Source: Scyliorhinus canicula
Lineage: Eukaryota
Assembly: GCF_902713615.1 (NCBI RefSeq)
Contig: NW_024055461.1
Coordinates: 2,349,323 to 2,413,322, forward strand
Length of the DNA: 64,000 bases
Reading direction: 5' to 3'
Numbering within the stretch: the stretch's first letter is position 1; every line of letters begins with the position of its first letter. The notes under the pieces were generated by a model, which was given only the letters and a program-made list of their open reading frames with translations, had not been told where the DNA came from and did no database searches. The translations under genes were made by a program, and so were the position numbers. Below are positions 8,517-17,815 of this stretch, piece after piece.

Positions 8517-9475
8517 TGTTCTGGAAAATACAGAATGTGTCATTTGAAACATAGAGGTCTGCCAACATCTGATCGGGGAGAGTGCAGGGAAAGATCCCAC
8601 AAGAGGTTGGTGGCAGCTGAAGGGCACAGAAACTGTGGGCAGCAATTTCAGTCTATCAGAATGGTTATTACAACCTGCAGCAGGAAAAAGGCAAAAGAAA
8701 AAAGTTTTAAAAAATCTCTTTGTGTTGTTGGAAAATTGTGATGGACTGCCCCTTTAAGACCCGAAGTCCGATCCTTATCAGAGGTCCCGATCAGAACAGC
8801 TGAAACAAAGAAACCAGCGTGGACTTCAGACTCCTCCCCTTTTTCTCCCCACGAGGCAAGAAGCAGAACAAAGACACCAGCAGCAGAACACCAGCGGCAC
8901 CCGAAGAAGGAAGAAGGACAGCAAGAGCAGAGGCCCAGCAGAGGGAAGGCCCAAAAAGACCAGACCAGACCAGACCAGACCAGAAGGAAGACGGAGCAGC
9001 AGCAGGAGAGAAGCAGCCACAGAAGAAAGAAGAGGAGGAAAAGAGAAAACTGCACCGGGAGAGATGACCAGGAGGCTTGAAAGTGAAAGAGAGAGAGAGA
9101 GAGTCTGAAGGCCTCACCAACCAACCAGACAACATCAAAAAGTAAATAATGTTTTAATTTAATGAGATAAAAAGAGTATGTTAATAATAAAATAATTTAA
9201 CCTGAAAAAGTGGTTATTAGCTTACTTCACTTCCTTAAGAACGCAGGACCCGTGACATCGATGCCATTAAGGGGTAAGTAAGTAAAATTCTTCAGTGAAG
9301 GTAGGAGTTATACCGGGGGATAACTTGAAAGGAGAGTTTGACCCGAATAGCACTCTCAGAGGCCTGTACTGGAGTCAGGGAGGAAGTTCCCTGTTCGCGG
9401 TTTTTAGAATATTGGCCCGTAAGGTTCGTTGGTATAAAGGGAATTCTAAAAACATATAGGTGAATTTAAAAAACA
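8517..9475 (+). repeat. 5' LTR (959 bp)
   Basis: Starts TGTTCTGG and ends AAAACA; AATAAA at 9186-9191; overlapping GTAAGT donor motifs at 9274-9279 and 9278-9283; internal (GACCA)n and (GA)n tracts. Confidence 0.97.
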
Positions 9476-9493
9476 TGGCGCCCAGCGTGGAGG
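9476..9493 (+). promoter_or_regulatory. Primer-binding site, tRNA-Lys(CTT)-type
   Basis: TGGCGCCCAGCGTGGAGG directly abuts the LTR CA; 15/18 match to the Lys1,2 PBS TGGCGCCCAACGTGGGGC used by foamy viruses. Confidence 0.85.
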
Positions 9494-9494
9494 C

Positions 9495-9800
9495 CTAGAA
9501 TATTAGAAGTTTCTAGGTAAAGCGAGGCTAGAATATTAGAAGTTTCTAGTTCCCAAGAAAGGCCTAGAATATTAGAAGTTTCTAGGTAAAGCGAGGCTAG
9601 AATATTAGAAGTTTCTAGTTAAGCAGAGTAGGGGCTAGAATATTAGAAGTTTCTAGTTCCCAAGAAAAGCCTAGAATATTAGAAGTTTCTAGGTAAAGCG
9701 AGGCTAGAATATTAGAAGTTTCTAGTTAAGCAGAGTAGGGGCTAGAATATTAGAAGTTTCTAGTTCCCAAGAAAAAGGCTAGAATATTAGAAGTTTCTAG
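9495..9800 (+). repeat. Array of 9 identical 22-bp repeats CTAGAATATTAGAAGTTTCTAG separated by 8 spacers of 11-16 bp in 3 classes
   Basis: Repeats start at 9495, 9528, 9564, 9597, 9635, 9671, 9704, 9742 and 9779. Spacer order is A B A C B A C B (A gtaaagcgagg; B ttcccaagaaa(a)(a)g(g/c)-type; C ttaagcagagtagggg). Confidence 0.97.
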
Positions 9801-15515: not shown

Positions 15516-16848
15516 GATTCTTCGAATCTCACTCAGGGGTGCAATGACAGAAGGAGGCTTGACTACATCAAGGATATGGAATATAAACCAGTTCAAAAAG
15601 AAATGATGGCAAAAGGAATCCGGAAGTCCTGGAGAGGGCACTTCTGGGATAATCCGAATTAAAGAATAGGGCCCTCTCCACCCTTGATCTGTTCATTTGC
15701 TTTTTCAGGTGGAAAAAATTAATAACAAACCAGGTCGCAAGAAGGAAGAGAACTACACTCCAATAACAAACCAGTTCGTGAGAAGGAAGAGAACTACACT
15801 CCAGAGAAGAATCTGTTCGACAGGATTGGGGGGAAACTAATGATATAATTGGCTACAAATTTGAGGGAATTAAATGCAAATTAGAATATCAAATTATAAC
15901 TGGACAGTGAAACCCCCGGTCAGACATCTCTAACTGGACATTAGTTGATGGATGATCTGTGGTCTCCATGGGGTATGTACTACGCAGTGGAATCATTAAG
16001 GTCTCGGCAGCAGATAGCAGCGACTGACGAGGAACCCCAATATGATCAATGATAATAGGTTAAGAATTTCAGTAGCTTGATACTACGGCGGGAAAATTGT
16101 TACCAATGCAACAAAACAATATTGCATTGAAGAGCTATAATCGTTGATAAGAAAATTTTTTTATTTTCATGTAAATTGATAGGGACTGTTGTATATATAT
16201 GAGAAGGGGGGTATGTGTGTCGGTAAATAACTTGATCCGCATTTCTAAACTGTGAATGTTTTAATAGAGGGTTAGTTAGTATGTAATAATGATTGTTCCA
16301 AAAGCCAAGAAGCGATGTTTCGATATTGATATTAAATTGTTAACAGTTGAAAATATGTAAAGTGTAACACACAGTCTATTGGTTAGGTAATGAATAAGGT
16401 GTTAAGATAAGATAAAAATTTTACTATGTATAGAACAATAGGGAGAATTTGTTTGGGAAGAAAAAAAAAGAGACGGTTCAATGCGGTTTTGTAAATGCTG
16501 AAATGAAAAATATACACGTTGTCAGAAAGATGTTCTCTCATGTAAACCAGGGGTTGGCAGACTTACATGATTCACGACAATGTTAGACATTAATGGGGAA
16601 GTTAGGAATACAAGCAGGATCAATTGAACATTTTAAATTAATAAGACTAGGGGATCAGTGGGGGGTAAAAGATATCACAATTACCACATTCCAATCAGAA
16701 ATGGAAAACAAGTTGGACTGGAACGGAAAACAAGACTTGTATTGACACTGGTCGGTGATATGCATACAAATGACAATGATCAGGGATGTAGGTTAGTACA
16801 ATTGGATGGGGGGACAATAAACCAAATTATAGTAATGTTTCAAATGTC

Positions 16849-16857
16849 AAGACGGGG
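16849..16857 (+). promoter_or_regulatory. Short polypurine tract candidate AAGACGGGG
   Basis: Purine-rich 9-mer immediately 5' of the 3' LTR; contains one pyrimidine. Confidence 0.55.
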
Positions 16858-17815
16858 TGTTCTGGAAAATACAGAATGTGTCATTTGAAACATAGAGGTC
16901 TGCCAACATCTGATCGGGGAGAGTGCAGGGAAAGATCCCACAAGAGGTTGGTGGCAGCTGAAGGGCACAGAAACTGTGGGCAGCAATTTCAGTCTATCAG
17001 AATGGTTATTACAACCTGCAGCAGGAAAAAGGCAAAAGAAAAAGTTTTAAAAAATCTCTTTGTGTTGTTGGAAAATTGTGATGGACTGCCCCTTTAAGAC
17101 CCGAAGTCCGATCCTTATCAGAGGTCCCGATCAGAACAGCTGAAACAAAGAAACCAGCGTGGACTTCAGACTCCTCCCCTTTTTCTCCCCACGAGGCAAG
17201 AAGCAGAACAAAGACACCAGCAGCAGAACACCAGCGGCACCCGAAGAAGGAAGAAGGACAGCAAGAGCAGAGGCCCAGCAGAGGGAAGGCCCAAAAAGAC
17301 CAGACCAGACCAGACCAGACCAGAAGGAAGACGGAGCAGCAGCAGGAGAGAAGCAGCCACAGAAGAAAGAAGAGGAGGAAAAGAGAAAACTGCACCGGGA
17401 GAGATGACCAGGAGGCTTGAAAGTGAAAGAGAGAGAGAGAGAGTCTGAAGGCCTCACCAACCAACCAGACAACATCAAAAAGTAAATAATGTTTTAATTT
17501 AATGAGATAAAAAGAGTATGTTAATAATAAAATAATTTAACCTGAAAAAGTGGTTATTAGCTTACTTCACTTCCTTAAGAACGCAGGACCCGTGACATCG
17601 ATGCCATTAAGGGGTAAGTAAGTAAAATTCTTCAGTGAAGGTAGGAGTTATACCGGGGGATAACTTGAAAGGAGAGTTTGACCCGAATAGCACTCTCAGA
17701 GGCCTGTACTGGAGTCAGGGAGGAAGTTCCCTGTTCGCGGTTTTTAGAATATTGGCCCGTAAGGTTCGTTGGTATAAAGGGAATTCTAAAAACATATAGG
17801 TGAATTTAAAAAACA
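16858..17815 (+). repeat. 3' LTR (958 bp)
   Basis: Identical to the 5' LTR by eye except for one missing A in an A-run (A6 at ~8698-8703 versus A5 at ~17039-17043). Confidence 0.97.

Follow-up and report, generated by a model that had tools for sequence, protein, structure and literature searches.

Does a retroelement with foamy-virus-like replication proteins and no envelope gene stand on the road from retrotransposon to retrovirus, or on the road back? The question is raised by a provirus at positions 8517-17815 of a 64,000-nucleotide (nt) stretch of the small-spotted catshark genome (Scyliorhinus canicula, RefSeq assembly GCF_902713615.1, contig NW_024055461.1, positions 2,349,323 to 2,413,322, forward strand), the whole of which is called the window here and whose coordinates are used unless a locus is named. 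A preliminary description took the element for a possible undescribed intermediate between retrotransposons and retroviruses. Here, we describe evidence that reverses this view, the element recording the loss and not the origin of retroviral features: it is very probably a recently inserted member of ERV-Spuma.0-Sca, a family of foamy-like endogenous retroviruses (ERVs), without the env-like gene, the accessory region, the gag macrodomain and the stop codon between gag and pol, which likely multiplied by germ-line retrotransposition. Statements on published systems refer to the portions of the cited papers that were available to us.

The provirus is complete, as had been claimed, with long terminal repeats (LTRs) running from TG to CA, GGTG target-site duplications (TSDs), a primer-binding site (PBS) and a polypurine tract (PPT) that ends GGGG/TG at 16857 (Table 1). 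It interrupts open reading frame (ORF) 2 of a CR1-type long interspersed element (LINE), sibling sequences of which join 8511 to 17815, and its two LTRs differ by no substitution and one indel, in an A-run, in keeping with a very young age. A single clean frame runs from the ATG at 10227 to the stop at 15515 (1762 amino acids, aa), as first described, and encodes Gag, protease (PR), reverse transcriptase (RT), RNase H (RH) and integrase (IN) in that order, with the motifs DTGA in the protease, DLANGFW and YIDD in RT, and DDE in the integrase; the tether is a degenerate RNase H that is followed by a second one (dual RNase H). Window Gag contains no CCHC knuckle (Cys-His box) and the gag part has no Pfam or database match. 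The exact-complement variant of the PBS was found in six of 50 PBSs counted in the family, and the host genes that match it are tRNA-Lys(CTT) according to ARAGORN in two of three loci scanned. Over the 1342 nt from the stop codon to the 3' LTR no stop-free stretch exceeds 94 codons on either strand, and the region was rejected as an env ORF; the copy is env-less in this sense, as had been stated, and what had been missed is that an env-like gene known from old copies has left both its 5' end and its 3' tail there.

Pol places the element among the foamy viruses. The best Protein Data Bank (PDB) match of window Pol is foamy virus PR-RT-RH, at 279 bits (Ty3 scores 150 bits), and that of the integrase is prototype foamy virus (PFV), the best integrase matches overall being fish foamy-like Pols; the nearest database proteins come from Scyliorhinus torazame (88-89%), followed by teleost proteins at up to 47%. 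In an RT tree of 64 rows (two of 65 chosen database rows were dropped for short coverage), the element falls in a 22-row fish clade (support 98/97) within a 27-row clade that includes feline foamy virus (100/99), inside the retroviruses (99/90). A 39-row tree of RT plus tether supports the fish foamy-like clade at 99/97, the foamy clade at 100/100 and the retroviruses at 100/96, bearing out the spuma relationship first proposed. Membership of Ty3/gypsy (Metaviridae) was rejected, as the RT lies outside the gypsy clades and the RNase H is dual rather than single. A scan of viral contigs with RT-RH found no relative.

It is, by contrast, highly improbable that the element belongs to a primitively env-less lineage like Loki or Odin that is intermediate between retrotransposons and retroviruses. 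The dual RNase H, the missing env and the single ORF do recall the layout of Odin (PMC9040795), and dual RNase H is shared with lokiretroviruses as well (PMC7947760); both lineages are reported as sister to all retroviruses, unlike the window element; Loki integrase is CGIN1-like and Loki env is F-like, and Odin resides in sea anemones (PMC7947760, PMC9040795). In our trees, whose teleost rows carry host names rather than names of foamy-like ERVs (FLERVs) and which contain no named Loki or Odin sequence, the unnamed dual-RNase-H proteins P0195 and P0262 branch sister to the retroviruses and were used as stand-ins. Forcing the element to join them was not rejected on RT alone (approximately unbiased (AU) test, p=0.055) and was rejected on RT plus tether (AU p=9.6e-10), where the element is nested in the foamy clade; membership of Lokiretrovirus or Odin was rejected on this basis. 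The integrase matches and the env-like remnants, present at old loci and also in the window copy, argue in the same direction. The F-like envelope profile PF00523 had no match in the genome, a positive control being likewise silent, and none in the env-like fragments described below.

Nor is the lineage undescribed. Song et al. (2023) report from this catshark a 9220-nt element, ERV-Spuma.0-Sca, with gag at 1538-3796, pol at 3920-6865 in the same frame and 'env' at 6989-8314 (PMC10699275). The window copy, at 9299 nt, repeats its spacings to the base, namely from the CTG at 10188 to the end of the boundary codon at 12446 (2258), and from there to the ATG at 12570 (124) and to the stop at 15515 (3069). 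Compared over the first 400 published letters, the published LTR start is of the U3 type seen in L022, L029 and other older copies. Because ORF spacings and LTR start agree, the family is counted as described: the window element matches ERV-Spuma.0-Sca and would belong to it, and this is likely a catshark family. Gag and pol are separate in the published consensus whereas the window copy has one fused ORF, and the stretch labelled 'env' (a CDS, outside the ORF rows of the paper) corresponds in the window to a deletion remnant, which corrects the label. The available part of the paper makes no mention of the fused subfamily, the macrodomain or old env-bearing copies, and it was the only literature found on Scyliorhinus with foamy and endogenous retrovirus.

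The fate of env can be followed in the older relatives. The RT query gave at least 144 scored genome matches at 96-100% identity, and copies bearing an env-like gene were also found, that gene being broken in all of them. Twenty 3' stretches, chosen via macrodomain matches, were surveyed for env. Behind the pol flank of one old copy, L060, about 3.4 kb of extra sequence holds env-like fragments that show a hydrophobic anchor at the N-terminus, sequons and, at the C-terminus, a second anchor with a Cys-rich tail behind it; one such fragment gave 27 matches at about 21 loci, all broken, the longest open frame being 291 aa (150 of 283 candidates scored). The layout is preserved in L064, which reads pol, a 1.3-kb region, an env-like gene of about 2.5 kb, the 3' region and PPT/LTR. 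The window aligns with it in three blocks, 15300-15492, then 15504-15760 after a gap of 1.3 kb, and 15825-16036 after a gap of 2.4 kb; it thus maps to both sides of the L064 env-like gene and therefore retains the acceptor, start and tail of that gene. These alignments indicate that the env-like gene was lost secondarily, by deletion, in the window lineage, which, with the remnants at old loci, removes the ground for an intermediate. Wang, Chen and Cui are said to have reported in 2023 (J Virol) an endogenous foamy virus of cartilaginous fish, which may cover the present family or its env.

The sole database homologue of the env-like fragments is a protein of S. torazame (53%), with which an ESM atlas search returned nothing. 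The C-terminal fragment placed class III viral fusion glycoproteins first in the atlas at 0.88, below the lead threshold of 0.9 (recognition <2300), the middle part returned nothing, and an AlphaFold model from a 15-row alignment had a pLDDT of 30 and no usable fold. Between pol and env, ORF remnants in L061, L062 and L072 (upstream of env) and in L074 (4549-5304), one with a hydrophobic segment, occupy the position of acc3/acc4 in fish FLERVs. A Cys-rich frame of 160-170 codons that ends at the PPT is open in about 30 middle-aged copies (e.g. L030:8344-8829); it has no homologue, no copy carries a frame there longer than 251 aa, and it is possibly the remnant of an accessory gene.

An env-less copy could also have spread by reinfection, with the envelope provided in trans by a circulating exogenous relative. 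Purifying selection on pol (see below) is compatible with either route, and recently active, env-intact foamy ERVs occur in swordtail fish (PMC12642411); against this stand the state of the env-like loci, every one found being old and broken, and the amplification of three successive env-less subfamilies over several Myr, so that reinfection seems improbable for the young copies.

Germ-line retrotransposition, the preferred route, agrees with a stepwise series of losses. A pol DNA tree of 62 rows (one locus skipped), rooted on env-bearing copies, is ladder-like and leads from macrodomain-bearing TGA copies through macrodomain-less TGA copies to copies with a GGA codon at the gag/pol boundary at the tip. 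The layout of old copies (about 77% nucleotide identity) is gag-TGA-pol-accessory region-env-like gene-3' region-LTR. In middle copies env is missing while macrodomain and TGA persist, in young copies the macrodomain is missing too, and the youngest have a sense boundary codon and one open Gag-Pol frame. The order of losses indicated by the tree is env with the pol-env accessory region, then the gag macrodomain, then the gag/pol TGA. Median LTR-pair divergence falls from 0.93% (seven older copies) through 0.3% (nine young TGA copies) to 0.0% (26 GGA copies, 14 of them substitution-free), 19 loci having no usable pair. At the shark substitution rate of 0.5e-9 per site per year (PMC10699275), these values correspond to about 9, about 3 and <3 Myr, and the identical LTRs of the window copy give an upper age bound only, of roughly 3 Myr. 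The 4-nt TSDs match in 22 of 26 GGA pairs (one of the four misses matches in a separate comparison), in all nine young TGA pairs and in all three older pairs. Some copies are tandem or clustered in the genome (G000, C2:199.12-199.13 Mb, C7:16.03-16.04 Mb and C125).

The second module to disappear is an in-frame insert of about 670 nt in gag. Its match to the Pfam family Macro stays below the cut-off (E=0.008); among macrodomains of the PDB it matches those of TTHA0132 (E=1.9e-5), alphavirus nsP3 (E=0.001-0.003) and PARP14 (E=0.01), and it is nearly fully covered at 87% identity or more in 39 of 89 genomic matches; an AlphaFold model from the single sequence had a pLDDT of 33 and no usable fold. 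Basta et al. (2009) reportedly described macro domains in fish epsilon-like ERVs. The literature found that pairs a macrodomain with a foamy or retroviral gag was limited to one line on macro-domain ORFs in such ERVs, in the available part of a review (PMC4977317). A foamy-like Gag-Pol of Coilia grayii (P0009, 2206 aa), annotated as one protein, has an N-terminal Macro match (E=2.6e-4), though the fusion may be a gene-model artefact.

At the boundary itself, two frame lengths recur. Counted by eye among the 144 top RT matches, a full 1788-codon frame is open in about 44 and a 1022-codon frame in about 22, copies of the latter kind carrying TGA in frame at the site of the window's GGA. The codon scored at 39 loci was TGA in 27, including the env-bearing L064 and L075, GGA in 11, all young, and a gap in one; as the first 20 loci were picked by frame length, the 27/11 split is not a frequency. 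Exact junction patterns occur genome-wide 91 times with GGA and 72 times with TGA (controls 0), and the fused GGA form is the youngest and commonest subfamily. A second route to fusion is an in-frame deletion of 357 nt in L028, L032, L035 and L038 (window 12348-12705 missing), three of which have open frames of 1661-1669 aa; it takes out the Gly/Arg-rich end of Gag together with the boundary stop and the protease motif, and its carriers nonetheless multiplied.

Selection bears on how the fused copies propagate. Among 31 GGA copies, shared variants in PR-RT-RH have an omega (ratio of nonsynonymous to synonymous change) of 0.15 (11 nonsynonymous, 19 synonymous), indicating purifying selection on their Pol. 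A comparison of GGA with old copies gives an omega of 1.15 for the N-terminal third of gag, against 0.16-0.39 elsewhere. Singleton variants give 0.32-0.55 in GGA copies versus 0.63-0.90 in old copies, a comparison in which 11 of the 31 GGA copies (ten loci and the window) were chosen with an open frame, biasing singletons downward. This pattern, a constrained pol and a relaxed gag N-terminus, fits intracellular retrotransposition with a cis-acting Pol. In such a history, the ancestor would have been an infectious complex retrovirus that obtained its Pol through readthrough of the UGA; once env was gone, it would have switched to intracellular copying, with reverse transcription primed by tRNA-Lys and a 4-bp duplication at integration, while domains needed only for infection decayed and constraint was relaxed on the Gag portion with a presumed role in budding. 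The fused form would make one Gag-Pol polyprotein cut by its own protease, and Pol would act in cis at least in part; possible sources of free Gag are full processing, an undetected spliced RNA and the help of TGA-bearing copies.

Several observations weigh against parts of this reconstruction. The one ground for regarding readthrough as the likely route to Pol is that TGA copies have no ATG between the stop and DTGA, and no significant RNA structure was found after the boundary codon (z -0.6 to +2.0). The env-like fragments have no Pfam or PDB match, and the gene is called env from its position, two hydrophobic anchors, sequons and the weak atlas lead. GGA needs four changes on the copy tree, one of them forced by strong branches, so that recombination or several origins are possible. 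Finally, gag variants shared among the 31 GGA copies are near neutral, at omega 1.0-1.2 (16 nonsynonymous, 4 synonymous).

The last point is also what would be expected if fused copies were non-autonomous, making Pol or nothing useful and being packaged in trans by Gag of TGA copies or of a related virus. In murine leukaemia virus, constitutive Gag-Pol fusion blocks assembly, and multiplication of the four sampled copies with the 357-nt deletion implies that trans-mobilisation occurs in the family. Yet the whole 1788-codon frame stays open in the many copies counted above, singleton gag omega is 0.34-0.55 as against 0.66-0.90 in old copies, no gag stop was counted among the 31 GGA copies, and these are younger and more numerous than the TGA copies; we therefore consider trans-packaging unlikely as the general explanation, though it deserves serious attention.

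With germ-line retrotransposition preferred, the element can be set beside known systems. Fish foamy-like ERVs (DrFV, AciFLERV/AcERV, AliFLERV, PpERV) share its foamy-type Pol, tRNA-Lys PBS, GGGTG PPT border, 4-nt TSD and Gly/Arg/Gln-rich Gag without a Cys-His box (PMC5210030, PMC5512871), and the old copies of the family share their pol-env accessory ORFs and an env without detectable homologues. Of the traits that mark FLERVs the window element thus has the RT-Pol clustering with foamy and fish sequences, the border, the TSD, the PBS and the missing Cys-His box; env is the one it lacks, a broken env-like gene surviving in the old copies. FLERVs described as complete contain env and measure 12-17 kb, whereas the window element, without env and with a single ORF, spans 9.3 kb. 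Mammalian foamy viruses (Spumaretrovirinae), which provide the best PDB matches for RT-RH and integrase and fall in the same clade, have env, tas, bet and a Spuma A9 protease, for which the window element has no Pfam match, and express Pol from a separate spliced mRNA with a start codon of its own, whereas window gag and pol share a frame in which no ATG separates the boundary codon from DTGA. SSSV and ZFERV are reported to have a UGA between gag and pol, in a review whose available part does not contain the word 'foamy' (PMC13517186). Secondary env loss followed by intragenomic spread is a known pattern, seen in IAP and MuERV-L; those belong to other retroviral lineages in mammalian hosts, and loss of a gag/pol boundary stop is not mentioned in the parts of the sources available (PMC10536682, PMC5930517).

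What the catshark family adds is a datable series of reductive steps within the foamy lineage, and our literature search found no account of such a fossil series, of a foamy-like Gag macrodomain, of a foamy-like TGA boundary or of a switch to a single ORF. It raises the questions of how an element of retroviral descent manages when Gag and Pol are made at a fixed 1:1 ratio and of the nature of the macrodomain and the orphan envelope in shark and fish foamy-like viruses. A doubtful extension is that a single genome records every stage by which a complex foamy-like shark retrovirus became an autonomous retrotransposon with one ORF. Its ancestor would have differed from mammalian foamy viruses in having a Gag macrodomain (likely a counter to host ADP-ribosylation), a readthrough Pol and an envelope of non-retroviral type, related to class III fusion proteins (chuvirus and rhabdovirus G, herpes gB); a class III-type envelope, if true, would represent a new case of envelope capture among vertebrate retroviruses.

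Contigs of four presumed-RNA runs span the ORF with no clear splice joint, contigs being blind to strand and level, and none of the runs holding the element is recorded as RNA; higher contig depth over the 3' region possibly stems from internally deleted copies. Contigs of two presumed-RNA runs begin at 9209, about 18 nt past the AATAAA at 9186, a weak hint of a polyadenylation site.

Table 1. Layout of the provirus and of the sites at which older copies hold additional sequence
Feature	Position	Strand	Remark
5' target-site duplication GGTG	8513..8516	+	within CR1-type LINE ORF2
5' LTR, 959 nt, TG..CA	8517..9475	+	AATAAA at 9186; donor-like GGGTAAGT at 9272
Primer-binding site, tRNA-Lys(CTT), mismatched in window copy	9476..9493	+	directly after the CA of the LTR
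Leader tandem repeat, period ~33-36 nt, 8.8 copies	9490..9801	+	length differs between copies
gag part, 739 aa, Gly/Arg-rich C-terminus, without CCHC	10227..12443	+	gag label by position
Site of ~670 nt in-frame macrodomain extra in older copies	10671..10679	+	
gag/pol boundary codon, GGA in window; older copies, env-bearing ones among them, have TGA in frame	12444..12446	+	
pol part, 1022 aa: protease DTGA (12549), RT (YIDD 13371), tether, RNase H, integrase	12447..15515	+	
Junction where old copies hold ~1.1-1.3 kb pol-env accessory region with hydrophobic ORF remnant	15492..15505	+	
Acceptor-like pyrimidine tract and putative 5' end of former env-like gene	15690..15760	+	old copies: ATG after AG
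Junction of the env deletion (~2.4 kb); a 41-nt tandem duplication overlaps it	15760..15839	+	
Putative cytoplasmic-tail remnant of env-like gene	15825..15910	+	
Eroded 3' region	15911..16845	+	300-550 nt longer in middle-aged copies
Polypurine tract, GGGTG PPT:LTR border	16846..16859	+	border as in foamy viruses and fish foamy-like ERVs (PMC5210030)
3' LTR, 958 nt, TG..CA	16858..17815	+	
3' target-site duplication GGTG	17816..17819	+	

Elsewhere in the window, uninterrupted frames of 343 and 337 aa at 21586-22617 (minus strand) and 40777-41790 (plus strand) match Pfam 7tm_1 (E=9.5e-16 and 2.1e-23) and are taken as single-exon G-protein-coupled receptor genes, the first lying about 3.8 kb from the provirus. 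A 35-nt minisatellite of more than 36 units occupies 53326-54900, and direct repeats at 341-1027 and 5055-5728, 94-95% identical and about 4.7 kb apart, flank a minus-strand LINE, possibly through local duplication.

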